64,000 bases of DNA, taken from NCBI GenBank assembly GCA_036141575.1, contig JAYZXF010000003.1, forward strand, positions 166,598 to 230,597, read 5' to 3'. Source of the stretch: Pseudomonadota bacterium. Its GTDB lineage: Bacteria > Pseudomonadota > Alphaproteobacteria > UBA2136 > JAPKEQ01. The notes below the pieces were generated by a model. That model saw nothing but the letters and a program-made list of their open reading frames with translations, did no database searches and was not told the origin of the DNA. Positions 22,892 to 41,389 of this stretch are shown here, one piece after another (within the stretch, counting starts at the first letter, position 1; every line of letters begins with the position of its first letter). The position numbers were made by a program, and so were the translations under genes.

Positions 22892-23865
22892 TAGCCAAGC
22901 ATCTCCTTCACAGCGTCTTTAATTGTTTCCACTTGAGGAAGCGCCATATCTTCTAGGTTCTTCGCGTAAGCAAGCGGAACATCAGCAGCACTTAGGCGTT
23001 TAACTGGAGCGTCCAAGTCATCAAATGCATTGTCATTAATTGTTGCAATAATTTCACTCGCTACACCATAAGCAGGCCAACTCTCTTCCACAATAATGGC
23101 GCGGTTTGTTTTACGCACACTGTTAATAATTGTGCCTTGATCAAGTGGACGGATCGTACGCAGGTCAATCACCTCAGCGCTAATACCTTCTTTCTCAAGT
23201 TCTTTTGCAGCTTCAAGTGCTTTAATCGCCATAATTGAGTAACCAATTAGAGTCACATCTGTGCCCTCTTTCATCACGTTGGCTTTACCAATTGGTGTCA
23301 CGTGGTCACCTTCTGGCACGTCCCACTCACTTCCGTAGAGAAGCTCATTTTCAAGAACAACAACTGGGCTCTCATCACGAATCGCCGCTTTAATCAGGCC
23401 CTTTGCATCTGCTGCATTAGAGGGGCAAACCACCTTAAGGCCAGGAATATGACCGTACCAGCTTGCATAGTCTTGGCTGTGCTGCGCGCCTACACGTGAC
23501 GCCGCGCCGTTAGGACCACGGAATACGATTGGGCATTTCACCATACCACCACTCATGTAGAGCGTTTTAGCAGCACTGTTAATAATGTGGTCACAAGCAA
23601 GCATGGCAAAGTTCCATGTCATAAACTCAACAACAGGGCGAAGGCCTGCCATTGCAGCACCCGTAGCAATACCCGCAAAACCAAGCTCACTAATTGGCGT
23701 ATCAATCACGCGCTTATCACCAAACTCTTCTAGAAGACCTTGTGAACATTTGTAAGCACCCTGGTACTCAGCAACTTCTTCACCCATCAGAAATACGTCT
23801 TTATCTGTGCGCATTTCTTCTGCCATACCATCTCTTAGAGCATCACGATATGTTTGCATAACCAT
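22891..23865 (-). CDS. pdhB: Pyruvate dehydrogenase E1 beta subunit (no N-terminal lipoyl domain)
   Basis: Transketolase-like pyrimidine-binding and C-terminal domains. The start is taken at the internal Met that overlaps the pdhA stop. Confidence 0.85.
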
Positions 23866-24932
23866 TAGTCTTGCCCTCCGTTTTCTGGTAGCACATCTGT
23901 CCACATTTCATGTTGCTGAGGCTCTGATGCATTAATTGCGTTTTCTGTCGCAGTATTCACTGTTTCTTTAGAGGCTTTATCAAGTGCCTTAAGGTCAGCT
24001 TCTTTCACGCTGTACTCACTCATCAGCACTTCACCAAGCGCTTCAATAGGGTCGCGATCCTTCTTCACGCAATCTACTTCTTCACGTGTACGGTACTTTG
24101 CAGGGTCACTCATAGAGTGGCCACGGTAGCGGTACGTATCCATTTCAAGAAGGTACGGCCCTTTACCTGAACGTACATGCTTTACAGCTTCTGTTGTTGC
24201 AGCATGCACTTCAAAGAAGTCCATACCATCTACGCGCTTACCAGGAATCCCAAATGGCTCACCACGCTTGTAAAATTCACCTGCAGCACCACGCTTTGTT
24301 GACGTTCCCATTGCGTATTGGTTGTTCTCAACCACAAAAATCACAGGAAGATCCCACAGCGCTGCCATGTTCATTGTTTCGTAAACTTGTCCGCCGTTCA
24401 TCGCGCCGTCACCAATGTAAGCAAAAGATACACGGTCTTCACCGCGGTACTTGGCAGCAAACGCCAGACCAGCACCTAGAGGCACTTGAGCCGATACAAT
24501 ACCGTGCCCACCCCAGAAGTGTTTTTCAGGGTCAAACATGTGCATGCTACCGCCCTTACCTTTAGAGATACCTGTCTCTTTACCCATAAGCTCAGCCATC
24601 ACAGCTTCAGGCTCAACACCACATGCAATTGCATGAGCATGGCAGCGGTAAGATGTAATCTGATCATCGTCTGGGTTGCTGGCAGCCTTAATACCTGTAA
24701 TCACAGCCTCTTGACCGATGTACAGGTGGCAGAATCCACCAATTTTACCTTGCTGGTACATTGTTGCGGCTTTTTCCTCAAAACGACGCAGCAGCGACAT
24801 TTGGCTATAAACATCAAGAAGTTGATCTTTTGTGAATGGTTTTTTATTCACAAGTTTTACAGACTTCGTTGAGGTTTTCTTTGCAAGCTTTGCAGGCATG
24901 TATGTCTTATCCTTCTTTTGCAAGTTTCTCAA
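23865..24932 (-). CDS. pdhA: Pyruvate dehydrogenase E1 alpha subunit
   Basis: TPP-binding GDGA..NGG motif and [11 protein letters not shown] phosphorylation-loop-like motif. Length 355 aa; the start could instead be the second Met at 24899. Confidence 0.9.
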
Positions 24933-26532
24933 TCATCTCAAGAATACGTTCATCAAACTTTTCTTGCTCTTCACGCATCAGTTCAACAGCATCATGTGTT
25001 GAAAGCTCTTCACGGTAAGCGCGTGGTTTTGTAAGTGCACAGAACACATCACAAGCACCAAGCACACGTGAGAGCATGTTAATTTCAGCTTCTTCAGCAC
25101 CGTATGGGTAGCCAGAACCATCCATACGCTCGTACATTTGTTGAATCACAGGTGCAACAGGGAAATCAAAGTGGATATCCTCAAGCACGCGCATGGCATG
25201 CGGGATGTGCTGTTGAAGTTTGCCAAGCTCAGTCTTTGTGAGCTTACCTTTCTTTGTGAGTACCTCTTGAGGTACAAAGATCTTACCAACACCTGAAAGC
25301 AGCGCACTGTAAAAGAGTGTTGAACGCTCAGGAATGCTCATACCCATGGCGTTAGAAACACGCAGCGCCATGCGCGCCACACGCTCATGGTGACCTGATA
25401 GGTATGGGTCACGAATTTCAACAGCTTTCACAAGTGCCATCATAGCTTGCTCTTGAATACGGACACGCTGACGGTTACGCGTTGCCAGCAGGTGACCAAT
25501 CATCACAAACAGGAAAGCACTCACAAGAATCACAATCATGGTTGTCAGAAGGTAAATGGTACGCTTAAAGCCTGCCAGTGGAGCAAGTGCAATGTCAGAT
25601 AGGTTTTCATAGCCCAGTACAAACGGTGCATTTTCAACAGGTGTAAATGATGCAAACACAGGCTTGTTATCATTCAAGCTTGGCACAGGTCTAAATGTAG
25701 AAAGCTTCGCAACACCAACCATGTGATCAGATACTATTTTATCAGAAACAGGCTTTGCATCGCTCAGGTTATCAACGCTTACAAGCTCAAGACCTTCAGT
25801 ACCAACTTGGTAGAACCCCATACGCTCCCCCTCAGAAGAGAGCTTACCAAGGTCTAGAAGTTCCTTCAGATCATCCCCTACAATAAACTCACTCAGCAGA
25901 AGTGCTGTTACACTTTGACCGCTAGCAGCATCATCCAATGACAGGATTGGCTTCGTCACCGCAACAACAAGGCCAAAATCATTATCTTGTAGTGTTGAGT
26001 ACTGAACTTCAGCCTTTTCAAAGCTGTTCGCAATAATCTCTTTATACTGTGCCCCGACGGTACCTGCTTCGCGGCTACCCATCAGCACGCGACCATCACT
26101 TGCTACAACAAACGCACCGTTCAGACCGTTTTGTTCTGCATAGTCTGTCATGGCTTGTTGCATGTAAGGCAATTGTTGCAAGAGAGACTGCTCAACTGAA
26201 TCATTATTATCAGACAGGATCGCTTCTGAAGCGTAAAGTTGGATCAAGTCAGATGAAACAATATGATCCCCCACACGAGACAAACCTTCAAGCCATGCTT
26301 CCATCACTTCAGCTTTGGCTTCTACTTGAAGTTCAGCGCGTGTCATCACTTCTTTACGAACAACAAACTCACGCTCACCAATAATCATCATAGCGGCCCA
26401 TACACCAATAGAAATAAGAACCAGCATAACAAGCATACCCCAACGCATCAGTGCAGCCATTGGCATGTAAAACGCGTTTTTCTTTGGCATGCCTTTAAGT
26501 GTGATATCAACTTGTGATGATACCTGTGACAT
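24907..26532 (-). CDS. Two-TM membrane protein with a large periplasmic sensor region and a C-terminal degenerate HD-GYP domain
   Basis: TM1 near aa 30-50, ~290-aa periplasmic region, TM2 near aa 325-350, then HD-GYP-like ...GHHERVAR...ALLSGVGKIF...HIPHA...YERMDGSGYPYG...DVFCALT. Lies immediately downstream of the LapG-like protease gene in the same operon. Confidence 0.8.
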   Translation of the reverse strand: MSQVSSQVDITLKGMPKKNAFYMPMAALMRWGMLVMLVLISIGVWAAMMIIGEREFVVRKEVMTRAELQVEAKAEVMEAWLEGLSRVGDHIVSSDLIQLYASEAILSDNNDSVEQSLLQQLPYMQQAMTDYAEQNGLNGAFVVASDGRVLMGSREAGTVGAQYKEIIANSFEKAEVQYSTLQDNDFGLVVAVTKPILSLDDAASGQSVTALLLSEFIVGDDLKELLDLGKLSSEGERMGFYQVGTEGLELVSVDNLSDAKPVSDKIVSDHMVGVAKLSTFRPVPSLNDNKPVFASFTPVENAPFVLGYENLSDIALAPLAGFKRTIYLLTTMIVILVSAFLFVMIGHLLATRNRQRVRIQEQAMMALVKAVEIRDPYLSGHHERVARMALRVSNAMGMSIPERSTLFYSALLSGVGKIFVPQEVLTKKGKLTKTELGKLQQHIPHAMRVLEDIHFDFPVAPVIQQMYERMDGSGYPYGAEEAEINMLSRVLGACDVFCALTKPRAYREELSTHDAVELMREEQEKFDERILEMIEKLAKEG

Positions 26533-26544
26533 AGGGAGTCTCCT

Positions 26545-27201
26545 TTATTTTCGGCCCATTTCTCTTGGCACAATATGCGCCCATCTGGTTGTTTCATTCA
26601 CCGAATAATACGGCAAGTATTGCATAACTTGGCTGTCAGGTAAAACAACATCAAACAAACTATCCATTACATAGAAAGTATCTGCATATTTTACGACAAG
26701 CACTGCGTGCGCAATGTTACGCACAGTATCTTTTACCACAGCAAGGCGCATATCGTCAGGATTAACCCCCAAACGCTTAAGAGTGACATACTTAAAGATG
26801 GCATAATCCTCACAGTCACCAGAATTTGGCATAAACTCTTCAGGCGTTGCCCAGTAATCAGAAATACCGTAATTGGTAATATCCTCAATATAAGGCCACT
26901 GGTTAGCAAACTTATTCACTTCTTGAAGCATAGTTAGCGTATCCTCGCCCTGCAAAGAGCGGATACGACCACGCCATGTGCGCATTTCACCACTTGTACA
27001 TGTGAGAGAATCCTCAAAACACTGGGAAAAATCAGCCTCTTCTTCTTCAAGTTTCTTTAAAACCGTTGTCCATTTTGGGAGAGCGGCAAGGCTCTTAGCT
27101 CTAAACTCAATTGTACCAAATAGGCCATTGCCCGCAAAAGCAGGCAGAGCTCCACACAGGAGCCCTATTGTACATACACCAATCTGAATGGCTTTTCGCA
27201 C
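26545..27201 (-). CDS. lapG: LapG-like periplasmic cysteine protease (BTLCP / DUF920 family)
   Basis: Signal peptide and the GDCEDYAIFKYVTLKRLGV catalytic-Cys block. Downstream His (HAVLVV) and Asp candidates give a Cys-His-Asp triad. Length 218 aa. Confidence 0.8.
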   Translation of the reverse strand: MRKAIQIGVCTIGLLCGALPAFAGNGLFGTIEFRAKSLAALPKWTTVLKKLEEEEADFSQCFEDSLTCTSGEMRTWRGRIRSLQGEDTLTMLQEVNKFANQWPYIEDITNYGISDYWATPEEFMPNSGDCEDYAIFKYVTLKRLGVNPDDMRLAVVKDTVRNIAHAVLVVKYADTFYVMDSLFDVVLPDSQVMQYLPYYSVNETTRWAHIVPREMGRK

Positions 27202-27209
27202 GAATTTAC

Positions 27210-28682
27210 CTATCGTTCACTTAATGCGTTTTGACGCATCTTATTAAATGGTTTCATCATATAATTCCAAACGGTTTTCTTACCCGTTAAAATCTCAACT
27301 GTTGCCACCATACCTGGCATAATTGGGAGCGGCTTATCTTCTGTACCTAGATGGCCCTTATCTGTTCTCACCTGAATTTCATAAAACGGCTCACCTGTCT
27401 TTTCATCCTGCACCGTATCCGCTGCAATTTGAATTAGTTTTGCATCAAGGCTACCGTAAATAGAAGGGTCATATGCTGTAATCTTCACACGCGAATCTTG
27501 GTTCGGACGAAGGAAGGCTACATCCTGCGGACGAATACGCGCCTCAACCACCAAGTTCTCTTCAATCGGAACCACCTCAACAATGTCCACACCAGGCTGA
27601 ATCACCTGCCCTACAGTATTGACAAGCACACGCTTCACCGTACCATGCACAGGAGAGCGCACAGTTGTACGGTCTACCTGATCTTCTACAGCTTTTACGG
27701 CTTCCTGCAAACGAACAAGTTCATCTTTTTTCTCAGTCAGCTCTGTTAGAGACTCTGTACGGTTACGTGCAACCGCCTCTTCCACGCGCTGTTTCGCTTC
27801 TTTAACAGCCGCCTCTCCTCTTGGAACAGCAAGCTTAGCAGCTTCCATTTCACCACGAAGATCGTTCACCTGTCGCTTCAAACGCAGAATATCCACCTTA
27901 GATACAACGCCTTTAGCTTCTAAAGGAATTGTCATTTGCAGTTCTTCATTAGAAATTTGGTATGAACGACGAGACTGGCCTGCTTTTGTCTTTGCTTCAC
28001 GAAGCTCTTGTTCTTTTTGCTCAACCTGACGCGTTAGAATTTCAACAGCAGACTGAATCTCTTCTTTGCGAGAAAGATAAAGCGTATTTTCAGATTCAAT
28101 AATCTGTGGCGCCTCTTCTACAACTTCAGCAGGCCACTTAGGTTTCTCACCTTCAAGCTCAGCATTTAAACGTGCCACAGCCGCCATAAGTGTGTAAATA
28201 CGTGCGCGGCGCTCACCAAGCGTTGACGCAAACCCTGTGTCATCAATACGAATAAGAATATCGCCCTTTTGCACAATATCTCCATTCCCAACAAGAATCT
28301 CTTTAACAATACCACCCTCAAGGTTTTGTACTGTCTGTGTATCACCTGATGGAATCACCTTACCTTGGCCGCGCGTCACTTCATCAAGTTCTGCAAACAT
28401 CGCCCAAGCAATAAAGAAAACAAAAAATGCGACAATTGCCCAGAACAAACGGTTAGCAATGGGGTGCACACCACGCAGTGTCGCTTGACGCACATCATCC
28501 ATAAAGATGCCATCTTCCCAAGCTGCAGGGAAGAACCAGTTCAAGATACCGCGCCATGCCTTTTCAGGACGACCTGCAGGTTTAAGATCTCCGCCCAGCG
28601 TGCTGTTTTTTCTCTCTTTTCGAGAAAGCTTCTTTGGCTTATCGTCCTTCAAAGGTTCATCTGGTATGCGAGATGAGTACAT
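27210..28682 (-). CDS. lapC: Type I secretion membrane fusion protein (HlyD family)
   Basis: N-terminal TM, long coiled coils and a C-terminal beta-barrel/lipoyl-like HlyD domain. Length 490 aa. Confidence 0.9.
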   Translation of the reverse strand: MYSSRIPDEPLKDDKPKKLSRKERKNSTLGGDLKPAGRPEKAWRGILNWFFPAAWEDGIFMDDVRQATLRGVHPIANRLFWAIVAFFVFFIAWAMFAELDEVTRGQGKVIPSGDTQTVQNLEGGIVKEILVGNGDIVQKGDILIRIDDTGFASTLGERRARIYTLMAAVARLNAELEGEKPKWPAEVVEEAPQIIESENTLYLSRKEEIQSAVEILTRQVEQKEQELREAKTKAGQSRRSYQISNEELQMTIPLEAKGVVSKVDILRLKRQVNDLRGEMEAAKLAVPRGEAAVKEAKQRVEEAVARNRTESLTELTEKKDELVRLQEAVKAVEDQVDRTTVRSPVHGTVKRVLVNTVGQVIQPGVDIVEVVPIEENLVVEARIRPQDVAFLRPNQDSRVKITAYDPSIYGSLDAKLIQIAADTVQDEKTGEPFYEIQVRTDKGHLGTEDKPLPIMPGMVATVEILTGKKTVWNYMMKPFNKMRQNALSER

Positions 28683-28695
28683 TTGTTTTCTCTTC

Positions 28696-30897
28696 TTATT
28701 TCTTTAATGTCGTTTTGTTTTTACCAGACAGGCTCTTCAGCACGTCTTCTTTAGGCCCGTCCGCAAGAATACGACCATCTTCCATCACAATGACACGGTC
28801 CACAAGATCAAGCATTGTGTACTTGTGCGTCACAAGAACAACTGTCTTATCCTTAATCGCTTTCTTCAAATGGCCCAGAAGCTTCATTTCTGTACGGTTA
28901 TCCATTTCACTTGTTGGCTCATCAAGCAGAAGAATTGGAGGCTCTTTAAGAATTGCGCGCGCAAGAGAGACCGCCTGACGCTGACCACCAGACAAACTAT
29001 CACCACGTTCGCCCACTGGCATATCAAGGCCCATAGGGTGTTTGCTTGCAAATTCATTCACGCCACTCATTTCTACAGCGGCTTTCAGTTGCTCCTGAGT
29101 TGCATGCGGTGCGCTCAACATAATGTTATGGCGCAGCGTGCCACTAAATAGAATAATGTTTTGTGGCACGTAACCAATATTCTTACGTACTTCCACTGGG
29201 TCTACCTGACGAATCTCAAGATCATCAAACAGAATGCTCCCTTGCGTTGGGTTATAAAGGTTAAGCATCAGACGTAGGAGCGAACTCTTACCAGAACCTG
29301 TACGACCAATCACAGCCACCTTTTCACCCGGCTGAATCTTAAAGCTCATATCCTTCACACTCTCGAGTGGAGAGTTCGGGTAAACAAATGACACATCTTT
29401 AAACTCAACTTGGCCTGTTGCCTCGCCAAGGTAAACAAAGTTTTTACCATCTGGGCGTTCAACTTCCATATCCATAATGCCGTTCAATGTTTCAAGAGAC
29501 TGCATGGCTTGGTTATAGCGCGCATAAAGCGCAACAGCTTGGCTAAGTGGCGCCATTGTACGACCCGCAAGAAGTGTACAAGCCACAAGCGCACCCACAG
29601 ACATGTAACCGCCTTTAATCATAAACACACCAACAACCACAATACCGACTGTCACCATCTGCTGAATAAAGCCAGCAAAGTTTTGACCAATAGACGCAAG
29701 AAGACGCGTACGCTGACCAACACGAGCGACAGCACCAACTGATTGCTCCCAACGAGACTGCATCACACTCTGCATGTTCAGGCTTTTAATCGCTTCAAGG
29801 CCATTAATCGTCTCAACAAGGTGACCATGCTTTGCATCAAGGTCTTGCATCGCCTGTTGAATAATAGCCTTCATAGGAGACTGCACTGTAAAGCTTACAA
29901 ACAGAACAATTGGAATTGCAAATAAAGGAACTAGCGCGACCCAGCCACCAATAATGGCAATCACACCAATAAAGACAAAAATAAACGGTAGATCAATCAG
30001 CGTTGTGAGCGTTGCTGATGTAAAGAAATCTCTAAGAGATTCAAACTCACGCAGCTGGTTTGCAAAGGCACCACTTGATGAACCTTGCTTACCAAGACGA
30101 ATATTAAGAACTTGCTGATACAGTTGACCAGACAGTAAAATATCAGCCCCTCGCCCTGCTGTATCAATAAAGTAACCTCGCAGCACCTTTAATATAAAGT
30201 CAAACACGTAAGCTGTACCAATACCAAGCGCAAGAACAGTTAGTGTTTCCATTGCGTTGTTTGGTACCACGCGGTCATAAACGTTCATCACAAAGAGCGG
30301 TGAGACCACTGCAATTAAGTTAATCACCACAGCAGCAATGGCCACTTGGAAGTAAATCCAACGAAACTGCCAAAGCGTATCTCTAAACCAGCGTTCACCC
30401 GATCTAAATACGTCCGTCACAAAATCATGTACAGCTGTTGGGCGCGCCATAATCATTGTACCAGAGTACACAGGCGCAAAGTCTTCAAGGCTTGCAAAGC
30501 GCTTTTCTTCACCACTTACAGGGTTTACCAGTACAACACTACCGTGATCACCCATTTCTTTAAGCACAAACGCAGGGCCAACCTCGTCACCCTCACCCTT
30601 TAAGATCACAAGAGCTGGAAGCACATGACGTGAAAGCTCTTCAAGCTTTCTATCAATCACACGCGCGTTTAAACCAGCGCGCTTTGCAGCACGTACAAAC
30701 AAGAATGGCGTAAGCTTGTTATTTTGGAGAGGAAGTCCGACCGTGAGAGATTCCGCATTGAAAAGCTTATTATAATGCTTCACAAAATACATAAGTCCTG
30801 CCAGTAGATAATCTGGCGCTTGAACCTTTTCAGCTTCTTCTTGCTTCACATCAATAGAACCCAGAGCTTCTTGTTGCTCTAACGTAGCGTCTGTCAC
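28696..30897 (-). CDS. lapB: Type I secretion ABC transporter ATPase/permease with an N-terminal C39-like (Cys-less) domain
   Basis: The first ~150 aa have a peptidase-C39-like fold but no cysteine. Six-TM ABC domain, Walker A GRTGSGKSS, signature LSGGQRQ, Walker B ILLLDE. Length 733 aa. Confidence 0.9.
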   Translation of the reverse strand: MTDATLEQQEALGSIDVKQEEAEKVQAPDYLLAGLMYFVKHYNKLFNAESLTVGLPLQNNKLTPFLFVRAAKRAGLNARVIDRKLEELSRHVLPALVILKGEGDEVGPAFVLKEMGDHGSVVLVNPVSGEEKRFASLEDFAPVYSGTMIMARPTAVHDFVTDVFRSGERWFRDTLWQFRWIYFQVAIAAVVINLIAVVSPLFVMNVYDRVVPNNAMETLTVLALGIGTAYVFDFILKVLRGYFIDTAGRGADILLSGQLYQQVLNIRLGKQGSSSGAFANQLREFESLRDFFTSATLTTLIDLPFIFVFIGVIAIIGGWVALVPLFAIPIVLFVSFTVQSPMKAIIQQAMQDLDAKHGHLVETINGLEAIKSLNMQSVMQSRWEQSVGAVARVGQRTRLLASIGQNFAGFIQQMVTVGIVVVGVFMIKGGYMSVGALVACTLLAGRTMAPLSQAVALYARYNQAMQSLETLNGIMDMEVERPDGKNFVYLGEATGQVEFKDVSFVYPNSPLESVKDMSFKIQPGEKVAVIGRTGSGKSSLLRLMLNLYNPTQGSILFDDLEIRQVDPVEVRKNIGYVPQNIILFSGTLRHNIMLSAPHATQEQLKAAVEMSGVNEFASKHPMGLDMPVGERGDSLSGGQRQAVSLARAILKEPPILLLDEPTSEMDNRTEMKLLGHLKKAIKDKTVVLVTHKYTMLDLVDRVIVMEDGRILADGPKEDVLKSLSGKNKTTLKK

Positions 30898-31093
30898 GTG
30901 TCACCTAAACTTTTTTATTATTACTGGCTCATTATGACTCAACATATAAAAGAAGACCAGAAATTCATGACAGCTGCCCGTGACATAAGCATAAAACAAA
31001 CATAAAAGACACACTCTTAGATGTTAAGAACTGTATGGAATCTTTAAAAACACTTGTAAAGATTTAAGAGTTCCACTATTTAAGGCACAATAA

Positions 31094-31113
31094 GTTGTAG
31101 GTATTTATACAAC
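31094..31113. promoter_or_regulatory. Inverted repeat GTTGTA-N8-TACAAC upstream of the tolC RBS, in the divergent promoter region
   Basis: Perfect 6-bp arms in the lapB/tolC intergenic region. Confidence 0.25.
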
Positions 31114-31141
31114 TGCTTAAACGAGGTAAGAGAGAAAAAAA

Positions 31142-32467
31142 ATGAAATTTACAGTTAAAGCAATGCTTGCAGGTGCTGGTCTTATGATCATGAGCCCTGC
31201 TGGCTACACTGAAACTCTTGGCCAAGCTGTCCAGCTGGCTCTACAAAACCACCCAGATATTAAAATTGCAAAAAACCAGAAGCACTCTATTGAGCACGAA
31301 TGGCGCATTGCTAAAGCTGGCTACCTGCCAAGCCTAGACGTAGCAGCAGGCTACGGTGTTGAACGCAGCGAGAACAACACAACACGTAACCGTGCAGGCC
31401 GAAACGGTACAAATGGTGATGCACACCGTACACTGAACCGTTACGAGTCAAGCGTAACAGCGAGCCAAATGCTTTTTGATGGTTACGAAACAAGCAGCGA
31501 AATCTGCCAACAGAAAGAACGCTTCAACTCTGCACGTTACAACGTAATGGAAGTTGAAGAGACTGTTTCTCTTGCTGCTGTTGAAGCATACATTGAAGTT
31601 CTTCGTAACATGGAGCTTGTTGCTATCTCTAAAGATAACTACAACACGCACCTACGTTACCTGAAACAAATTAAACAACGCGCTGAAGGTGGCCGCGGTA
31701 ACATGGCAGACGTTCGTCAGGCCGACGGTCGTGTAGCTCTTATCCGTGCAAACCTACAAGCAGCTGAAGGTGACCTTGCTAACGCGAAGGCAAACTACCT
31801 AGAAGTTGTTGGTAAACTACCAGAAGGCGTGAGCCTGCCAACTCCTCCAGTTGAGGTTCTACCATCTACTATTGATGATGCAATCGCTCGCGCTATTGCA
31901 AACAACCCAGCTCTTGGTAGTGCACAGCACGACATTAAAGCAGCTAAAGCAGCGAAACAAACTGCTAAAGCAAGCTTCTACCCTCGTTTTGATGCTGAAC
32001 TAGAAGCATCACACGATCACAACCTAAGCGGCCAAAGCGAAAAAGGGACTGACCGTAACTACCAAGCCATGGTACGTATGCGTTACAACCTTTACAGCGG
32101 TGGTGCTGACCGTGCCCGTGTACGTGAGCGCGCAAGCCGTGTTCAAGAAGCCCGTGAATCTCTAGAAAGAGATCGCCGTCTCGTTGAAGAAGGCATGTAT
32201 GTTGCTTGGAACAACCTAGAAACAGCAAGAACGCGTATCCAACCACTTAGTCAACACGTGATGGCATCTGATGCAACACGTAAGGCTTACAGTGAGCAGT
32301 TTGATATTGGTCAGCGTAGCTTGCTTGACCTTCTCGACTCTGAGATTGAGTTCTACGGTGCACGTAGCGCACTTGTAAACGCTAAATACGCACTTGATTT
32401 TGCAGTGTACAACGTACTTGCACAATCAGGTGAGCTTGCTAACACTGTTGGTGGGCACCGCTCTTAA
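31142..32467 (+). CDS. lapE: TolC-family outer membrane channel of the T1SS
   Basis: Signal peptide, two OEP repeat halves. Length 441 aa. Transcribed divergently from the ABC/MFP operon. Confidence 0.85.
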   Translation: MKFTVKAMLAGAGLMIMSPAGYTETLGQAVQLALQNHPDIKIAKNQKHSIEHEWRIAKAGYLPSLDVAAGYGVERSENNTTRNRAGRNGTNGDAHRTLNRYESSVTASQMLFDGYETSSEICQQKERFNSARYNVMEVEETVSLAAVEAYIEVLRNMELVAISKDNYNTHLRYLKQIKQRAEGGRGNMADVRQADGRVALIRANLQAAEGDLANAKANYLEVVGKLPEGVSLPTPPVEVLPSTIDDAIARAIANNPALGSAQHDIKAAKAAKQTAKASFYPRFDAELEASHDHNLSGQSEKGTDRNYQAMVRMRYNLYSGGADRARVRERASRVQEARESLERDRRLVEEGMYVAWNNLETARTRIQPLSQHVMASDATRKAYSEQFDIGQRSLLDLLDSEIEFYGARSALVNAKYALDFAVYNVLAQSGELANTVGGHRS

Positions 32468-32486
32468 GCAGAGCATCTCTTACCTC

Positions 32487-32514
32487 AAAAAGGGCGGTTT
32501 ATCCGCCCTTTTTT
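32487..32514 (+). terminator. Rho-independent terminator after tolC
   Basis: aaaaagggcggTTTATccgccctttttt. Confidence 0.7.
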
Positions 32515-32749
32515 CTATGCCCTTAAATTGTCTACAATTTTTGTCAGTTAGATTGTCAGAGAAAATTATTTACCCACCCCACAAATATGTAGGGTGTGAT
32601 GAAGACGGTGGATTCACGGAAAAAATTATATTATTCAACGTTTTTATTTGTATACGGGACTTGAAATCTGTACAAATGCGCCTACATCATTTATACCGCC
32701 TTAAAACTTTGGCGGATAATGACAGTATTTTTTTGAGGAGGCCAATACA

Positions 32750-35700
32750 ATGTCAACGACACAAAACCAAGAGAATCAAGCGCTTGAAACAACTGAAACA
32801 GGCACAAAGCTCTTTGCCGGACTACCTGAAGAACAGGCTGCTGCGCAGACGAAAAATGTTCTGACAGTTTCTGCTCCGAAAGGAAACTCTAGCGAAGCAT
32901 ACACTGTTGAACCAGGCGATGTCATTAAACTGACAGGTTTTAATCCATCTGATGCAACTTTCAAAGTTGACGGTAACAACCTGATCATCTCTGTAGAGGG
33001 GCAACCTGATATTTACCTTCTTGATTTTGCAAAGCTTCAAGGCACAGATGCTGGTAACACAACATTTATCGAACTTACTGAAGGCGCAACAGTTGATGCA
33101 AACAGCCTCCTTGCACAGTTGACGCCAGAAGCTACAAACGGCAACGGTACTCAAGTGGCAGCCTCAGATGAAAACATTAACGAGATTGAGCCGGCAGCCG
33201 GTCCAGCCGCTGGTGCTGCTGGTGGTGCAGGTTTCACCCCTCCTCCAGTTGCAAATGATTCTTTCTCTGCCAATACAGTTAACGCCGAAGTGATCGGCGA
33301 TTTCCTCGTTGATAGCGAGTTTGGCCAAGCTGATGAACGCCTACTAGAAACACCTAACCGTGCTCCAGATGCTGTGGATGACAACGGCGGTAACGCTGAA
33401 GGTGATGCACACACAGTTAAAGAAGATGCTGTACCAAACACAGTTTCAGGCAACGTACTTGCCAACGATACAGACCCAGATGGTGATACGCTGAGTGTAG
33501 CAAACCCAGGGACTTACACACTGAACTACGGTACACTTACAATTAACGTAGACGGTACGTACACATACGCCCTAGACAACAGCAACCCAACTGTAAACGC
33601 TCTAGATGATGGTGACACGCTCACAGATTCATTTACATACCGCGCAACAGATGGTCAGCTTCAGTCTCCAGCAAACCTAAACATTCGTATCCTAGGTACA
33701 AATGATGGTCCTGAGCTAAACAATGATGTAGACCCTAACGACAATAGTCTTTCTATTAAAGAAGATGCAGTACCAAACTTCACATCTGGTAACGTACTTG
33801 ATAACGACGTTGACCCAGATGGCGATGTGCTCACGGTTGTAAACCCAGGCACGTACACCCTGAACTACGGTACACTTGTGATTAATGCTGACGGTACATA
33901 CACGTACACACTCGATAACAGCAACCCAACTGTAGACGCCCTAGACAACGGCGATACACTATCAGATAGCTTCACATATGAAGCGACTGATGGCGACCTG
34001 AACGATACAGCGGTTCTAACAATCACAATTCACGGTACAAATGACGCTCCTGCTCTTCAAGATGACGTAAACAGCATTTTTGAAAACGCAACACCTGACA
34101 CAGTAACAGGTAACGTACTTGCGAACGATACAGATGTTGAAGGTGATGCAATCACTGTTTCAAACCCTGGTATCTATGTTCTTAACTACGGTACACTTAC
34201 ACTGAATGGTGACGGCTCATACTCATACCAGCTTGATAACAGCAACCCTACTGTGAACAACATGAAAGCTGGCGATAGCATTCAAGATGCCTTCATTTAC
34301 CGCGCTACTGATGGTAAGGATAGCTCAACAGCGAATCTAACAATCACAATTCACGGCACAAATGACGGCCCAGTTGCAAACGATGATGTTGCAGCAACAG
34401 ACGAAGATACGCCGATTACAATTCCAGCAAGCACAATCCTTGCGAACGACTACGAGCTTGAAGGTGACACATTTAACATTACTGCTGTGAATGTAAGGTT
34501 TGGTGGCGGTACAGCCGTACTGAACGCAGATGGTAGCGTAACATACACACCACTGCATAACTATAACGGCCCTGCTCAGTTGGAATATACAATTACAGAT
34601 ACTGATGGCCTATCGGATACTGCCGTGATTGATATCAATGTGATTTCAATTAACGATGTACCGCTAGCAGAAGATGACAGCGCTGTGACTCATGAAGATG
34701 TGCCTGTACGCATTTCTAACGCTGAAATTCTGCGTAATGACTCTGACCCTGAAGGTGACGCACTCACAATTACAACGGTTCGCGTTGTATCTGGTGGTGG
34801 TAGTGCTATTCTTCAACCCAACGGTGACGTGGTTTACACACCTGCGCTAAACTACAATGGCCCTGCGGTTCTTGAGTACGTAGTAACGGATGGAAACGGC
34901 GACTTTGATAGTGCCTTCATTAACATTGATGTCCTTCCTGTAAACGATGCAATTTCAGCACTTGATGACTACGCTGAAACACCAGAAGACACTCCGATCA
35001 CAATTCCTTCAGATAATATTCTTGCGAACGATTACGATCCTGAAGGTGACCCGCTTACAATTACAGCAGTGAGCGTTGTATCAGGCGGAGGTAGTGTTAC
35101 CCTTAACGCTGACGGCAGTGTAACGTACACGCCAGCGCCAAACTACAGCGGCCCTGCGGTTCTTGAGTACACAGTTGATGACGGCAATGGCAGTACAGAT
35201 ACTGCTTTGATCAACATCACAGTTACACCAGAGAATGATCCAGATGCAGTTGATGACTTCGCAACAACACGAGAAGACACAACAATTGTAATCCCGAATG
35301 CAACAATCCTTGCAAACGATGTGGATGATATGGGTCTTGCTCTTACAATTACAGAAGTACGCCTTGTAAGCGGCGGCGGTAGCGTAACGCTACTCGCAAA
35401 CGGTGATGTATCTTACACACCAGCGCCAAACTACAATGGCCCAGTTGTTCTTGAGTACACAATTCAAGATCCAAACGGTAACGAAGACAGTGCAAACATC
35501 TACATTGCAGTCACACCTGTGAACGACGGCCCTGTTGCTGTTGATGACTTTGCTGTGATGAATGAAGATTCTGTTCTTGTCATTCCAGAAGGCACCCTAC
35601 TGGCCAATGATACTGACCCAGAGGGCGACCCTCTTACAGTAACTCATGTCACTGTTGTAAGCGGTGGCGGCACAGCGACTGTAGATGCTTCAGGTAACGT

Positions 35701-38700
35701 AACATACGTACCAGCCCTCAACTACAACGGCCCTGTTGTTCTTGAATACACAATTAACGACGGCAACGGCGGTACTGATACTGCGCTTGTTAACATTGAC
35801 GTTCTGCCTGTAAACGATGCGCCAGTGGCAAACGATGACGCTGCAGCAACAGATGAAGACACGCCAATCACGATTTCAAACGCTGATATCCTATCAAATG
35901 ACTTTGATGTAGATGGCGATGTGATCACAATTACTGGCGTACGCATGGTAACAGGCCAAGGTACAGCGGTACTCAACGCAGACGGTAGCGTAACTTACAC
36001 GCCTACTGCCAATTACCACGGCCCTGCTGAAATTGAGTACACAATTGAAGATGAGCACGGTGCAACGGATACAGCAATTATCCGCGTAACAGTAAGATCT
36101 GTAAATGATGGTCCACAGGCAAACGATGATGCCTTCACAACGCCAGAAGATACAGCAATTACAATGACATCTGCTCAGATCCTATCAAACGATACGGACC
36201 CTGAAGGCGATCCTCTATCAATCACAAGCGTGATTGTAGTAAGCGGTGGCGGTACAGCGGTACTGAATGCTGATGGTAGCGTAACGTACACACCAGCGGC
36301 TGACTACAACGGCCCTGCGGTTCTTGAGTACGTTATGACTGATGGCACAGCTTCTGATAGTGCCTTCATCAACATTAACGTAACGCCTGTTAATGATGCG
36401 CCTGATGCAAACGATGATAGCTTCACAACTGCTGAAGATACTGCACTGACAATTCCAGCTGCAAACATCCTTGCAAACGACACAGACCCAGATGGTGACA
36501 CACTCACAATTACTGGCGTAAGCGTTCTTTCAGGTGGTGGTACAGCGGTACTAAACGCTGATGGTAGCGTAACTTACACGCCAGCAGCTGATTACCACGG
36601 CCCTGCGGTTCTTGAGTACAGCATCTCTGATGGTAACGGTGGTACAGATACAGCACGTATCAATATCACAGTAACGCCTGAGAACGACCCTGATGCAGTT
36701 GATGACTTCACTAGCACTAATGAAGACACAACTGTAATCATCCCGAACGCAACAATCCTTGCGAACGATGTGGATGACATGGGCATGACACTCACAATTA
36801 CCAATGTACGCGTTGTAAGCGGCGGCGGTACAGTACAGCTCCTAGCAAACGGTGATGTATCTTACACCCCTGCTCAAGGTTACAACGGCTCAGCAACGCT
36901 TGAGTACACAATCACAGACCCGGATGGCAACACTGATAGTGCAAACATCTTTGTGGCAATCAACCCTGTGAACGATGGCCCAACAGCTGTAAACGACGTA
37001 GCAGTCATGAACGAAGACACTGTTCTTGTGATTCCTGAAGGCACACTGCTTGCTAATGACAGTGACCCTGACGGTGACCCACTGAACGTAACAGGTGTAA
37101 CTGTTGTAAGCGGTGGCGGTACAGCAACAATTGATTCTGCAGGTAACGTAACGTACGTACCAGCCCTCAACTACAACGGTCCAGTTGTCCTTGAGTACAG
37201 CATCTCTGATGGTAACGGCGGTACAGATACGGCGCTTGTCAACATTACTGTAAACCCAGTCAATGATGATCCAAACGCTCGTAACGATAACTACACAACT
37301 GCCGAAGACACATCTGTTGGCCTAGACCTTCTAGCGAACGATACAGATGTAGATGGTGACACACTAACAATTACACACATTGCTGGTGTAGCCCTAACAG
37401 GTGGCGCTCAGTCAATTGATGTAGGTAACGGTCGCGTAGAAATTGCTGCAAACGGTTCTATGCGCTTCCACCCTGATGCAAACTGGAACGGTACTGAAAC
37501 ATTCAACTACCAAGTTTCAGATGGTAACGGTGGTACAGACACTGCAACAGTTCGTGTAAACGTAGACGCTCGTAACGATGGCCCTGATGCCCGTAACGAT
37601 AACTACACAACAAACGAAGATACGTCAGTGAACCTGAACCTTCTGGCAAACGATACTGACCCAGATGGCGATACGCTCACAATTACACATATTGATGGTG
37701 TAGCCCTAACAGGTAACGCGCAAACAATTGATGTGGGTAACGGTCGCGTAATCATTGCGTCTAACGGCACAATGCGCTTCCAACCGGATGCCAGCTGGAA
37801 TGGAACTGAGGCCTTCAGCTACCAGATCTCTGATGGCAACGGTGGCAGCGATACTGCAACTGTACGTGTAACAGTGAGAGCTGTAAACGACGGTCCAGAT
37901 GCTCGCAACGATAACTACACAACAGATGAAGATGTCTCAGTGAACCTGAACCTTCTGGCAAATGATACTGACCCTGAAGGCGACACACTCCGCATCACGC
38001 ACATTGATGGCACAGCCCTAACAGGTAATGCACAAACAATTGATGTGGGTAATGGCCGTGTCATTATCTCATCAACAGGTGCTATGCGCTTTGAGCCAGA
38101 TGCTAACTGGAATGGTATTGAAACATTCAACTACACAATTACAGACGGTAATGGTGGCACAGACACTGCCCGCGTAACTGTTGAAGTATGTGCAGTAAAC
38201 GACGGCCCAGATGCTCGCAACGATAACTACACAACAGATGAAGACACTGCGGTGAATATCAATCTGCTTGCGAACGACACAGATATCGATGGCGATACAC
38301 TCCGCATCACACATATTGCTGGCACAGCCCTAACTGGCGGCGCACAAACAATTGATGTGGGTAACGGTCGTGTCATTATCTCGTCAACGGGTGCTATGCG
38401 CTTCCAACCGGATAACGGCTGGTTTGGTACTGAAACATTCAACTACCGCATTACAGATGGTAACGGTGGCTCTGATACAGCAACAGTAAGAGTTGTTGTA
38501 CGCGAAGGCAACAACGGCCCTGATGCGAAGAATGATAGCTACACAACAAACGAAGATACGTCAGTAAACCTGAACCTTCTAGCGAATGATACTGACCCTG
38601 ACGGCGATACGCTTCGTATCACTCATATTGAAGGTGTAAGACTCACAGGCAGTGCACAAACAATTGATGTGGGTAACGGTCGTGTCATCATTACTTCTGC

Positions 38701-40243
38701 TGGTGCTATGCGCTTCCAGCCTGATGCAAACTGGAATGGTACTGAAACATTTAGCTACCGAATCTCTGATGGTAATGGGGGTGTAGACTCTGCACGCGTA
38801 ACTATTAATGTTAAACCAGTAAACGATGGCCCTGATGCGAAGAATGATAGCTTCACAATCAATGAAGACCAAACCCTTTACCTCAACGGTGGATCAAAGC
38901 TTCTTGCGAATGACCGTGATATTGATGGTGATAGTCTAAATATTACGCACATCAACGGTGTAAGACTGACTGGCGGCAACCAAAACATTGATGTAGGACG
39001 CGGTACAGTGGTTGTTGGCAGTGATGGCAGCATGCAGTTCCGTCCAGATCGTAACTGGAACGGCACAGAGACATTCACTTACAGAATCTCTGATGGCAAC
39101 GGCGGCAGTGATACAGCAACTGTAACAGTCAAAGTAAGACCAGTAAATGATGGTCCGAACGCACGTAACGACTCTGTATCTGTAAACGAGAACCAGTCTA
39201 TTGCGATTAGCGTTCTAAACAACGATACAGACCCTGATGGCGATGCATTACACATCACACGTATTGTAAGTGGTCCAAACTTTGGTAGCGCTTACGTATC
39301 AGGCGGACGTATCATTTACACAGCAGGCTCTGTAACATCAGATCGCACGGTTACTTTCAGATATGAAATCTCTGATGGTCACGGTGGTACTGATATTGCA
39401 ACCGTAACAGTAAACGTACGTAACACTTGGAACCCTGGCGGTGACGGCGGCGGTGACGGCGGCGGTGATTGCCCACTTATCATTGACCTAGACGGTGACG
39501 GCCTTGAGCTTATCGCTCTAGAAGACTCAAACGCTATGTTTGATGTTGATGGTGACGGACAAGCAGAGCACACAGCATGGGCTTCATCTGATGATGGTAT
39601 CCTTGCGATGGACTGGAACGGTGACGGCATCATTAATGATGTAACTGAAGTCTTTGGTAACAGCCTACAAGACGGTTTCACTGAGCTTATTGAGCTTGAT
39701 GACAACGGTGATGGCGTCATTAACCAAGATGACAGCCTGTTCTCTAGCCTACAAGTATGGCAGGACTACAACGGTGACGGTATCTCTGATGCTGGTGAGC
39801 TGAGCAGCCTTGCTGACCACGGTATCACGTCACTTGGTGCAGTTGGCAATGAAAACCCAATGGTGATCAACGGCCAAACAATTACGCACACAAGTAGTGT
39901 TGAGTACGCTGATGGAACATCACGTGACATCTACAGTGTATGGTTCCAGAACGAGAACACAAGTTCAAGTGACCATAACTACGATGAGATTGACCTTACA
40001 GGTGACTCTCTAGTTGGCTTCAGCGTATCACTTGACGATGTTCTGAGTACGGCTTCAAACACGCTTGTGATCTCTGGTGATGATGGTGATGCGGTGACAA
40101 CAACTGAGTTCACTGAACGTAACGATAACGTAACGATTGGTGACCAGACATACGCGTCATTCACAGACAGCAACCACACAGGAACAATCCTGATTGAGCT
40201 TGGCCTGACTGTAAACGGCGAGACAATGACAGACGTTGTTTAA
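32750..40243 (+). CDS. lapA: Giant LapA-like type I secreted repeat adhesin, 2497 aa
   Basis: Strong gaggagg RBS. N-terminal beta-rich region followed by the EPAAGPAAGAAGGAG tract. More than 20 tandem ~100-aa VCBS/cadherin-like repeats (..ANDTDPDGD.L....V..G.....DG.V.YTP..NYNGP....Y...DG.G..D.A...I.V.PVND.P). C-terminal Asp/Gly-rich Ca-binding region (GGDGGGDGGGD, DLDGDG, DVDGDG, DDNGDG) and a non-cleaved C-terminal secretion signal. Confidence 0.85.
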   Translation: MSTTQNQENQALETTETGTKLFAGLPEEQAAAQTKNVLTVSAPKGNSSEAYTVEPGDVIKLTGFNPSDATFKVDGNNLIISVEGQPDIYLLDFAKLQGTDAGNTTFIELTEGATVDANSLLAQLTPEATNGNGTQVAASDENINEIEPAAGPAAGAAGGAGFTPPPVANDSFSANTVNAEVIGDFLVDSEFGQADERLLETPNRAPDAVDDNGGNAEGDAHTVKEDAVPNTVSGNVLANDTDPDGDTLSVANPGTYTLNYGTLTINVDGTYTYALDNSNPTVNALDDGDTLTDSFTYRATDGQLQSPANLNIRILGTNDGPELNNDVDPNDNSLSIKEDAVPNFTSGNVLDNDVDPDGDVLTVVNPGTYTLNYGTLVINADGTYTYTLDNSNPTVDALDNGDTLSDSFTYEATDGDLNDTAVLTITIHGTNDAPALQDDVNSIFENATPDTVTGNVLANDTDVEGDAITVSNPGIYVLNYGTLTLNGDGSYSYQLDNSNPTVNNMKAGDSIQDAFIYRATDGKDSSTANLTITIHGTNDGPVANDDVAATDEDTPITIPASTILANDYELEGDTFNITAVNVRFGGGTAVLNADGSVTYTPLHNYNGPAQLEYTITDTDGLSDTAVIDINVISINDVPLAEDDSAVTHEDVPVRISNAEILRNDSDPEGDALTITTVRVVSGGGSAILQPNGDVVYTPALNYNGPAVLEYVVTDGNGDFDSAFINIDVLPVNDAISALDDYAETPEDTPITIPSDNILANDYDPEGDPLTITAVSVVSGGGSVTLNADGSVTYTPAPNYSGPAVLEYTVDDGNGSTDTALINITVTPENDPDAVDDFATTREDTTIVIPNATILANDVDDMGLALTITEVRLVSGGGSVTLLANGDVSYTPAPNYNGPVVLEYTIQDPNGNEDSANIYIAVTPVNDGPVAVDDFAVMNEDSVLVIPEGTLLANDTDPEGDPLTVTHVTVVSGGGTATVDASGNVTYVPALNYNGPVVLEYTINDGNGGTDTALVNIDVLPVNDAPVANDDAAATDEDTPITISNADILSNDFDVDGDVITITGVRMVTGQGTAVLNADGSVTYTPTANYHGPAEIEYTIEDEHGATDTAIIRVTVRSVNDGPQANDDAFTTPEDTAITMTSAQILSNDTDPEGDPLSITSVIVVSGGGTAVLNADGSVTYTPAADYNGPAVLEYVMTDGTASDSAFININVTPVNDAPDANDDSFTTAEDTALTIPAANILANDTDPDGDTLTITGVSVLSGGGTAVLNADGSVTYTPAADYHGPAVLEYSISDGNGGTDTARINITVTPENDPDAVDDFTSTNEDTTVIIPNATILANDVDDMGMTLTITNVRVVSGGGTVQLLANGDVSYTPAQGYNGSATLEYTITDPDGNTDSANIFVAINPVNDGPTAVNDVAVMNEDTVLVIPEGTLLANDSDPDGDPLNVTGVTVVSGGGTATIDSAGNVTYVPALNYNGPVVLEYSISDGNGGTDTALVNITVNPVNDDPNARNDNYTTAEDTSVGLDLLANDTDVDGDTLTITHIAGVALTGGAQSIDVGNGRVEIAANGSMRFHPDANWNGTETFNYQVSDGNGGTDTATVRVNVDARNDGPDARNDNYTTNEDTSVNLNLLANDTDPDGDTLTITHIDGVALTGNAQTIDVGNGRVIIASNGTMRFQPDASWNGTEAFSYQISDGNGGSDTATVRVTVRAVNDGPDARNDNYTTDEDVSVNLNLLANDTDPEGDTLRITHIDGTALTGNAQTIDVGNGRVIISSTGAMRFEPDANWNGIETFNYTITDGNGGTDTARVTVEVCAVNDGPDARNDNYTTDEDTAVNINLLANDTDIDGDTLRITHIAGTALTGGAQTIDVGNGRVIISSTGAMRFQPDNGWFGTETFNYRITDGNGGSDTATVRVVVREGNNGPDAKNDSYTTNEDTSVNLNLLANDTDPDGDTLRITHIEGVRLTGSAQTIDVGNGRVIITSAGAMRFQPDANWNGTETFSYRISDGNGGVDSARVTINVKPVNDGPDAKNDSFTINEDQTLYLNGGSKLLANDRDIDGDSLNITHINGVRLTGGNQNIDVGRGTVVVGSDGSMQFRPDRNWNGTETFTYRISDGNGGSDTATVTVKVRPVNDGPNARNDSVSVNENQSIAISVLNNDTDPDGDALHITRIVSGPNFGSAYVSGGRIIYTAGSVTSDRTVTFRYEISDGHGGTDIATVTVNVRNTWNPGGDGGGDGGGDCPLIIDLDGDGLELIALEDSNAMFDVDGDGQAEHTAWASSDDGILAMDWNGDGIINDVTEVFGNSLQDGFTELIELDDNGDGVINQDDSLFSSLQVWQDYNGDGISDAGELSSLADHGITSLGAVGNENPMVINGQTITHTSSVEYADGTSRDIYSVWFQNENTSSSDHNYDEIDLTGDSLVGFSVSLDDVLSTASNTLVISGDDGDAVTTTEFTERNDNVTIGDQTYASFTDSNHTGTILIELGLTVNGETMTDVV

Positions 40244-40399: not shown

Positions 40400-41389
40400 A
40401 TGACGACGCAAATTACCCCCATCCCTCAATGGGTTTTCAATGCAAAAATGCCAGACGGTTACGACCCAAAGGCCAACTTTTCCCAAATGCAAGCCACATG
40501 GGACAGCATCCCTCGTGAAAAAGGTGAGCTGGGTCAGCGTCTGCAAATCTACGTGATTGCGTATTTTATGGGCATCACAAAGATTGAAATCTACAACACA
40601 GACAGCCTGAACTACCTTGCAGACAAAGGCATTCTGGATAGCAAGCGCTATCAGCCAACCCCTGCAACGCAGAACTTTCTGTACCACATGGCCACTGAAC
40701 ATCCGGAAAACATTCCCAACAGTGTCTTTGACCTTGAGTTCTACAAAGAACAAAAGCCCAAAGTCGCGCGCTGGCTGGAAAAGAAAATTCGCCGCCACAA
40801 TGGCGAATACACCTCTTTGGAAAAGCTGGGCCAAGCCCTACTTGCCCTGCCTGGTGCAACGGTTCGCTTTGTGAAGGACCGTGTATCCATCACAGGCCAG
40901 TTTAAACTGCTCAAAAATGAGTCAGGCAAGCTGATTGGTGTGGAACACCCTGAAGTTAAGGTGGCCACACCTGAAATCAACACAAGTGAGAATGGCAAAA
41001 AGTCTCTCTCGTGGCCTACCTTGGATAAAGGTGACAACCTGCTAGCGCCTCCTCCTGAACCCACAGACATTCCCGAACCTGGTCCTGAATTTGGGCTAGA
41101 AGAAAAGAATGAGGGCAAGGAAGAAGCTCCCACTCAGGACCCTGAAGCCACGCCGCACGCTGACGACACCACTCCGGTGAAGGAAGAGCCTGAAGCGGAA
41201 AAGAAGTCTGGCGAAGAAGCTCCTCCGAAAACCAAGCGCAAGCCGCGCAAATCGGCAGCCAGCAAAAAAACTGCTGGGAAAGGCCCTAAACGCGGCCCTG
41301 ATGGACGTTTTCTCAAAAAAGAAGAAACTCCTCCTGAACACCACTTCCGCAGCACTGGAGGCGGCAGTGGCGGCGGAACAGGCTGCTAA
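40400..41389 (+). CDS. Hypothetical protein: ~200-aa globular N-domain plus an acidic-then-Lys/Pro-rich histone-like tail ending GGGSGGGTGC. CTG-rich codon usage is atypical for this window
   Basis: Good RBS ggagga. 329 aa. No signal peptide. Tail ...PPKTKRKPRKSAASKKTAGKGPKRG. Confidence 0.5.
   Translation: MTTQITPIPQWVFNAKMPDGYDPKANFSQMQATWDSIPREKGELGQRLQIYVIAYFMGITKIEIYNTDSLNYLADKGILDSKRYQPTPATQNFLYHMATEHPENIPNSVFDLEFYKEQKPKVARWLEKKIRRHNGEYTSLEKLGQALLALPGATVRFVKDRVSITGQFKLLKNESGKLIGVEHPEVKVATPEINTSENGKKSLSWPTLDKGDNLLAPPPEPTDIPEPGPEFGLEEKNEGKEEAPTQDPEATPHADDTTPVKEEPEAEKKSGEEAPPKTKRKPRKSAASKKTAGKGPKRGPDGRFLKKEETPPEHHFRSTGGGSGGGTGC

Follow-up and report, generated by a model that had tools for sequence, protein, structure and literature searches.

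A probable c-di-GMP receptor with a degenerate HD-GYP domain, related to DvhD and lacking a PAS domain, encoded beside a LapG-like protease in an uncultured marine bacterium

We analysed a 64,000-nucleotide stretch of contig JAYZXF010000003.1, here called the window, from an uncultured marine metagenome-assembled genome (MAG) of the Pseudomonadota, in which a gene on the minus strand encodes a 541-residue membrane protein with a C-terminal HD-GYP domain. This domain has lost ligands for both core metal sites and has kept most of the residues that contact nucleotide in its closest solved homologue, DvhD. The protein is a shortened relative of DvhD without the PAS domain, and by analogy with DvhD we consider it probable that it is a catalytically dead HD-GYP receptor for cyclic di-GMP (c-di-GMP) in the inner membrane. 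The receptor class is already published and was established experimentally for DvhD, and the novelty of the short form is modest.

The span 24907-25440, which an initial annotation had described as an HD-GYP domain with substituted catalytic and metal-binding motifs, is the 3' third of an open reading frame (ORF) at 24907-26532 and encodes residues 365-541. The protein is identical to NCBI entry MEC9291278.1 from a Pseudomonadota MAG, where it is annotated 'HD domain-containing phosphohydrolase', and the GC content of 45% is uniform between the gene and the window. The gene is organized as follows, with TM denoting a transmembrane segment and AF2 an AlphaFold2 model.

24907..26532, minus strand: whole gene, a 541-residue inner-membrane protein with the order TM1, periplasmic dCache, TM2, degenerate HD-GYP
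26374..26463, minus strand: TM1, residues ~24-53, from hydropathy peaks and a long helix (25-86) in the AF2 model
25564..26373, minus strand: dCache-type domain in the periplasm, residues ~54-323, with homology to its counterpart in DvhD
25477..25563, minus strand: TM2, residues ~324-352, from hydropathy and the AF2 model
25411..25476, minus strand: stalk helix, residues 353-374, continuous with TM2 and without an intervening PAS domain
24910..25440, minus strand: degenerate HD-GYP domain, residues 365-541, from Pfam, phmmer, MAFFT and Foldseek

The Pfam model HD_5 (PF13487) matches residues 367-529 with 125 bits (cutoff 27) and an E value of 2.5e-36; PF01966, the classical HD model, reaches only 13.3 bits, under its cutoff of 22, and the NCBIfam phosphodiesterase (PDE) family model is far below threshold at 81 bits against 400. 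Together with the intact G474-Y475-P476, the HD_5 match bears out the initial claim that the GYP signature and the overall scaffold are retained. AF2 modelling of the full-length protein (mean pLDDT 84.8) shows a single helix, residues 317-374, that runs from TM2 into the stalk. Pfam gave no PAS match anywhere in the 541 residues, and the Pfam and NCBIfam scans detected no LapD_MoxY_N, HAMP, GGDEF or EAL domain in the protein.

Three kinds of alignment were made: pairwise phmmer alignments to solved HD-GYP proteins, a MAFFT alignment that took in PmGH, V-cGAP3, PA4781, DvhD and 78 relatives of the protein, and a Foldseek alignment of the AF2 model. All three put the same residues at the catalytic positions.

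25291..25296, minus strand: S413-G414, replacing the HD dyad (PmGH H221-D222)
25132..25137, minus strand: M466-Y467, replacing the His-His pair (PmGH H276-H277, second metal), with E468 kept
25105..25113, minus strand: G474-Y475-P476, the GYP motif, kept; its Tyr corresponds to DvhD Y621, a phosphate contact for c-di-GMP
25039..25041, minus strand: C498, replacing the second Asp of DxxD (PmGH D308), with the first, D495, kept
25012..25023, minus strand: R504-A-Y506-R507, corresponding to DvhD R650/Y652/R653 of the canonical c-di-GMP site
25390-25392, 25207-25209 and 25048-25050, minus strand: H381, H442 and D495, former metal ligands

From PmGH to the window protein, the full correspondence runs E185 to Y377, H189 to H381, H221 to S413, D222 to G414, H250 to H442, H276 to M466, H277 to Y467, E278 to E468, D305 to D495 and D308 to C498, and the window protein has other residues at five of the eight metal-ligand positions of PmGH (E185Y, H221S, D222G, H276M and H277Y). 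The initial annotation had read the HD dyad as SG and the HHE triad as MYE, and both readings agree with the alignments; the strings that it quoted are all present (GHHERVAR at 380-387, ALLSGVGKIF at 410-419, MYERMDGSGYPYG at 466-478 and DVFCALTKPRAY at 495-506). It had also counted a Cys at the second Asp of DxxD among the lost metal ligands. The Cys does align with PmGH D308, but the loss of a ligand there does not follow if, as we presume, D308 is a conserved residue that binds no metal and D305 is the ligand. For the PmGH ligands we used the list that we take Bellini et al. (2014) to have given. Our PmGH numbering offset reproduces E185 and K235/G237 as in Galperin & Chou (bioRxiv version). 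The possibility that the ligands are conserved and merely displaced was rejected in this proper alignment to solved HD-GYP proteins, with no His or Asp found within about six residues of the SG or MY positions. The metal ligands are lost, not shifted.

The protein shares its fold with active HD-GYP PDEs (PmGH, 4mcw; V-cGAP3, 5z7c; PA4781, 4r8z; and RpfG), with sequence E values from 4e-26 to 6e-12. Foldseek superimposed it on 4r8z with a TMt of 0.77 and a root-mean-square deviation (rmsd) of 2.6 Å, and its match to 4mcw (E 8e-12) extends past the domain. Like these enzymes it has the GYP motif and the RxxK/R motif, and in place of the KPG loop it has a KxG loop (K427-K428-G429). Unlike them, it has replaced the HD dyad and both second-site His residues, and it lacks the third-metal Glu of trinuclear enzymes such as PmGH. 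The non-canonical HD-GYP protein Bd1817 of Bdellovibrio (PDB 3tm8) is a weak match (E 2.6e-5). Bd1817 presumably keeps its metal site and lacks the GYP Tyr, which is the opposite deviation to that of the window protein.

Among solved structures, the best matches by both sequence and fold are not enzymes but the entries of DvhD (DVU1020) from Desulfovibrio (Nitratidesulfovibrio) vulgaris Hildenborough (PDB 9rbz, 9rc0 and 9rc2; PNAS 2024, Nat Commun 2026; PMC13090378, PMC10990149). The DvhD HD-GYP domain with c-di-GMP (9rbz) matches with an E value of 8e-37, 35% identity, a Foldseek TMt of 0.83 and an rmsd of 2.9 Å; 9rc0, the PAS/HD-GYP fragment, is the third DvhD entry among the best matches. 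The DvhD periplasmic domain (9rc2) matches the periplasmic half of the window protein with a phmmer E value of 2.7e-7 and, by Foldseek, an E value of 2.7e-14 and a TMt of 0.84, ahead of every other dCache structure. Both domains of the window protein are homologous to those of DvhD, and the two proteins share one topology (TM, periplasmic dCache, TM, cytoplasmic degenerate HD-GYP).

In DvhD, SQ stands in place of HD and MN in place of HH; no metal was found bound to the protein, and none of the metals tested enabled it to hydrolyse c-di-GMP (PMC13090378). It binds c-di-GMP with a Kd of 99-322 nM at canonical and dimer-bridging sites, and binding splays its stalk helices (PMC13090378). In a reconstituted system DvhD gives c-di-GMP-dependent control of the LapG-like protease DvhG, and it acts as the functional analogue of LapD (PMC13090378; PMC10990149). 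The two ideas of the initial annotation about function, that the domain has a binding or sensing role instead of PDE activity and that it parallels the degenerate EAL domain of LapD, thus find support in its closest solved homologue, a c-di-GMP receptor that does not hydrolyse its ligand. Both proteins have replaced HD and His-His and kept GYP and RxYR. They differ in detail: the window protein has SG where DvhD has SQ, MY where DvhD has MN, and the first Asp of DxxD where DvhD has Asn. The window protein has no PAS domain, and its TM2 is fused straight to the stalk; it is 541 residues long, and full-length relatives with the PAS domain mostly have 650-750. The hosts also differ, DvhD coming from a sulfate reducer and the window protein from a marine MAG.

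The residues that contact c-di-GMP in DvhD are largely present. Of the canonical contacts, Y523, L577, Y621, R650, Y652, R653 and E668 correspond to the identical Y377, L431, Y475, R504, Y506, R507 and E522, and M646 to L500, so that seven of nine are identical, one is a conservative change and one (K582) is lost. At the dimer-bridging site, K520 corresponds conservatively to R374 and P567 to P421. Among the relatives, all 73 sequences tabulated (27 of 27 short and 46 of 46 long forms, as defined below) have Arg at R650 and R653, and Y523, P567, L577, Y621 and Y652 are largely kept. The position of E668, which reads the guanine amino group in DvhD, is variable or gapped in many relatives, and this might mean that the same receptor design serves another physiological ligand, such as 3'3'-cGAMP or linear pGpG. 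HD-GYP pockets grip the second base only loosely (Galperin & Chou, bioRxiv), and the DvhD PAS/HD-GYP fragment does bind 3'3'-cGAMP, about 5-fold more weakly (501 nM), and pGpG weakly (PMC13090378). Such a change of ligand nevertheless seems unlikely for the window protein, which retains the Glu (E522); c-di-GMP is the best ligand of DvhD and the signal to which known Lap and Dvh systems respond (PMC13090378).

Scanning GTDB at one genome per species yielded 78 related loci. The HD dyad is missing from all 78, and each has Met in place of the first HH His. The HD-GYP part of the window protein is 86-88% identical to that of two orthologues (77% identical), with a ratio of nonsynonymous to synonymous divergence (dN/dS) of ~0.04, and the remaining protein has a dN/dS of ~0.12 against the same two; dS is near saturation, so these ratios are rough. 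The domain is under strong purifying selection. Because the HD dyad is absent from every locus and dN/dS is ~0.04, the substitutions do not reflect chance, sequencing error or decay. A pseudo-enzyme in decay, or an assembly artefact without function, is almost inconceivable: nothing beyond the loss of catalytic residues speaks for it, and we rejected it on the family-wide conservation and dN/dS (~0.04-0.13), alongside an intact reading frame and conserved synteny.

A neighbour-joining tree built from the domain places all 78 loci, the window protein and DvhD together in a single clade, separated from three active enzymes in 60 of 60 bootstraps. Within it, the short form groups together with weak support (20 of 60). 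One MAG, RI_95, carries both a short-form gene and a long, PAS-containing DvhD-like gene (loci L026 and L027; WGLU01000002.1 and WGLU01000001.1), with a separate LapG-like protease gene ahead of each; in the tree, the short-form clade has the long copy (L027) as its closest neighbour. In part of that clade (L006, L009, L010-L012, L014, L016, L018 and L024) the GYP Tyr is His (GHP) and the residue at DvhD Y652 is also His; judged from the sequences, these two nucleotide-contact positions seem to have changed as a pair.

The residues that are not lost bear on whether the protein might still be a PDE, perhaps a slow 'trigger' enzyme with a one-metal remnant site. H381, H442, D495 and E468, which would form such a site, show little or no variation within the short form, and the short form retains one ligand more than inactive DvhD, which has Asn at the D495 position. 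The HD dyad that defines the HD superfamily and both second-site His residues are nevertheless gone in every relative, and we know of no HD-GYP enzyme without HD. DvhD, with comparable losses, shows neither hydrolysis of c-di-GMP nor bound metal (PMC13090378). We therefore regard residual PDE activity as very improbable.

The neighbourhood of the gene, which the initial annotation had not noticed, contains genes for a type I secretion system (T1SS), a protease and a giant adhesin.

28696..30897, minus strand: LssB-type T1SS ABC permease/ATPase with an N-terminal C39-like domain (TIGR03375, 889.9 bits, above cutoff)
27210..28682, minus strand: T1SS HlyD-family adaptor (TIGR01843, 388.6 bits, above cutoff)
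26545..27201, minus strand: LapG/DvhG-like BTLCP cysteine protease of 218 residues with a Sec-type signal peptide (Pfam Peptidase_C93, PF06035, E 4e-19)
31142..32467, plus strand: TolC-family T1SS outer-membrane channel (TIGR01844, 334.6 bits, above cutoff)
32750..40243, plus strand: adhesin of 2497 residues with 20 Big_9/cadherin-like repeats, the likely protease substrate
33191..33214, plus strand: tandem PAAG-PAAG at adhesin residues 148-155, within NEIEPAAGPAAGAAGG, fitting the LapG/DvhG cleavage consensus [T/A/P]AAG

The HD-GYP gene is the last in a minus-strand string of ABC, HlyD, protease and HD-GYP genes, with gaps of 13, 8 and 12 nucleotides. By phmmer the protease matches two solved BTLCP proteases, 4u65_E (E 6e-21) and 4fgo (E 2.5e-18), which we take to be the LapG proteins of P. 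fluorescens and L. pneumophila. Its GDCEDYA (Ca/Cys motif), AHAVL and MDSL segments align with both, and the Cys-His-Asp triad and the flanking Ca-binding D-C-E are present. The gene order is conserved: of the loci with enough upstream DNA, 22 of 24 in the short form and 31 of 44 in the long form show ABC-HlyD-LapG-HD-GYP, and the protease gene lies immediately upstream in 53 of the 68 testable loci. The motif [DE][IV]EPAAG recurs in adhesin N-termini beside 10 of 12 other short-form loci. DvhD, too, is encoded right after a LapG-like BTLCP protease and a T1SS, beside a giant adhesin with a [T/A/P]AAG site; the proteases differ in that DvhG has a TM anchor and the window protease a cleavable signal peptide, the commoner state (PMC13090378).

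Because the gene lies directly downstream of a LapG-like protease and a T1SS, the parallel with LapD is literal and not a mere analogy. Like LapD of Pseudomonas fluorescens, the window protein is predicted to sit in the inner membrane, to sense c-di-GMP through a degenerate enzyme domain and, signalling from inside to outside, to gate a periplasmic BTLCP protease that frees a T1SS adhesin. The proteins themselves are built differently: LapD consists of LapD_MoxY_N, HAMP, degenerate GGDEF and degenerate EAL domains, and the domains on both sides of the membrane are unrelated to those of the window protein. The absence of all four domains rules out that the gene encodes a canonical LapD. The Trp-based docking of LapG by LapD is likewise absent from DvhD (PMC13090378).

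The periplasmic domain alone was also searched for exhaustively among 1.84 billion proteins, which gave 126 cluster representatives, 70 of ~630-760 residues, 30 of ~495-620, 25 fragments and one above 760. This dCache variant appears, from its sequence distribution, to be specific to the DvhD family. As dCache domains are typically ligand sensors, the protein might instead signal from outside to inside, its dCache domain binding a small periplasmic molecule and its dead HD-GYP domain only dimerizing or docking, with no nucleotide bound; whether the DvhD dCache domain binds a ligand is an open question (PMC13090378). A pure scaffold would not, however, need the c-di-GMP contact residues of DvhD, which are among the most conserved in the family, and a periplasmic domain confined to this family in two length classes and encoded beside a protease fits protease docking. 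We hold an outside-in sensor to be quite unlikely.

For the preferred reading, an inside-out c-di-GMP receptor, it is the comparison with DvhD that predicts the binding of nucleotide and its specificity, the lack of hydrolysis, an interaction with the protease and which way the regulation runs. A dimer would bind c-di-GMP in the former active site through Y377, L431, Y475, L500, R504, Y506, R507 and E522, possibly with a second, dimer-bridging site around R374 and P421. Binding would alter the packing of the stalk helices, and because these are directly continuous with TM2, the change would be transmitted across the membrane to the periplasmic dCache domain, which would restrain the adjacent LapG-like protease. 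At high c-di-GMP the protease would be held off and the 2497-residue, T1SS-exported adhesin would remain anchored; at low c-di-GMP the protease would cut the adhesin at its N-terminal PAAG/PAAG and release it.

Several observations weigh against this reading. At the nucleotide sites, DvhD K582, a phosphate contact, corresponds to L436, and R569 of the bridging site to E423, so that neither is conserved. The PAS domain, which is part of the DvhD dimer axis, is missing, and signal transmission may differ; how DvhD itself restrains DvhG is not yet established (PMC13090378). The protease scores only 97 bits against the NCBIfam LapG equivalog model, with a cutoff of 320. For the adhesin N-terminus, an NCBIfam search for a retention module returned only repeat-domain matches, and comparison with PDB sequences gave a chance match only and no solved structure. 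No diguanylate cyclase gene was found among the large ORFs scanned in the window, nor any GGDEF or EAL gene. Lastly, three of the nearly invariant residues of the short form (H381, H442 and D495) are former metal ligands, and this remnant is the one observation that a metal-free receptor model leaves unexplained; DvhD and its Desulfovibrio relatives share Asn at D495, and some long forms have Gln at H381.

Other parts of the window were surveyed as well. A second giant protein of 3030 residues (43422-52514, plus strand) has RTX nonapeptide repeats at residues ~200-431 and 2665-2938, 16 Big_9/cadherin repeats and DUF4114. We set it aside as a second substrate of the protease because it has no N-terminal [TAP]AAG motif; from its sequence it is probably exported by a T1SS but not released by the LapG-like protease. 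A 329-residue ORF (40400-41389, plus strand) with a very basic Lys/Glu/Pro-rich C-terminal tail, located between a thiolase gene and the adhesin gene, has no Pfam match. On the same strand as the HD-GYP gene and downstream to ~18254 lie genes for E1 alpha, E1 beta, a DAO-family oxidoreductase, E2, a NUDIX protein and E3 of pyruvate-dehydrogenase type. Because the likely E1 alpha ATG is only ~8 nucleotides past the HD-GYP stop (24899-24932), the adhesion operon may, judging by this spacing, read through into central metabolism genes. In the interval 23800-32800, promoter-like sites were no commoner than in shuffled sequence and terminator-like sites only modestly commoner, and none of these sites marks a gene boundary of the operon. 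A cytoplasmic PAS-GAF-PAS-PAS histidine kinase of 790 residues is encoded at 14837-17209 (minus strand). Two further ORFs, 10782-12065 (minus strand, 427 residues) and 53780-54421 (plus strand, 213 residues), match no Pfam family at E <= 0.01, and the 64 kb contain no tRNA gene and no Rfam family at the gathering threshold.

The absence of the PAS domain divides the family into two forms. The linker from TM2 to the HD-GYP domain has 1-8 residues in the window protein and the 26 short loci; in the 52 long loci, with a few exceptions, it has 129-145 residues and contains a PAS domain, as in DvhD. The HD position reads S or A followed by G, S or A in the short form, and S or A followed by Q in the long form. 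This simpler, two-domain build accounts for 26 of the 78 loci and for about 30 of the 126 family representatives. The 26 short-form loci all come from uncultured MAGs, whose labels include Alphaproteobacteria, Magnetococcales, Proteobacteria/Pseudomonadota, Pseudomonadales, Pseudomonadaceae and one Blastochloris viridis; one relative stems from a Tara Oceans sample. The published DvhD survey used RefSeq-select and demanded coverage of all DvhD domains. It lists 78 proteins, which belong to cultured Desulfovibrionales, to one Desulfuromonas and to cultured Alphaproteobacteria, among them Kiloniella, Sneathiella, Pelagibius and Fodinicurvata. As far as we can tell, the short form lies outside that survey. 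The PAS-less form might go further and be a distinct, minimal inside-out receptor, in which the stalk acts directly on TM2 and a single-metal site of H381, H442, D495 and E468, unlike anything in DvhD, aids nucleotide binding or slow 'trigger' hydrolysis; we consider this improbable.

DvhD-type control of adhesins, in which a dead HD-GYP protein replaces LapD, would thus not be confined to sulfate reducers and the cultured Alphaproteobacteria surveyed so far. Without the PAS relay, the short form would offer a cleaner model for transmembrane signalling from a nucleotide-bound HD-GYP dimer. Close relatives are labelled 'c-di-GMP phosphodiesterase class II' in IMG, and because of this label and the 'phosphohydrolase' of GenBank, censuses that equate HD-GYP domains with c-di-GMP-degrading enzymes would miscount these genomes.

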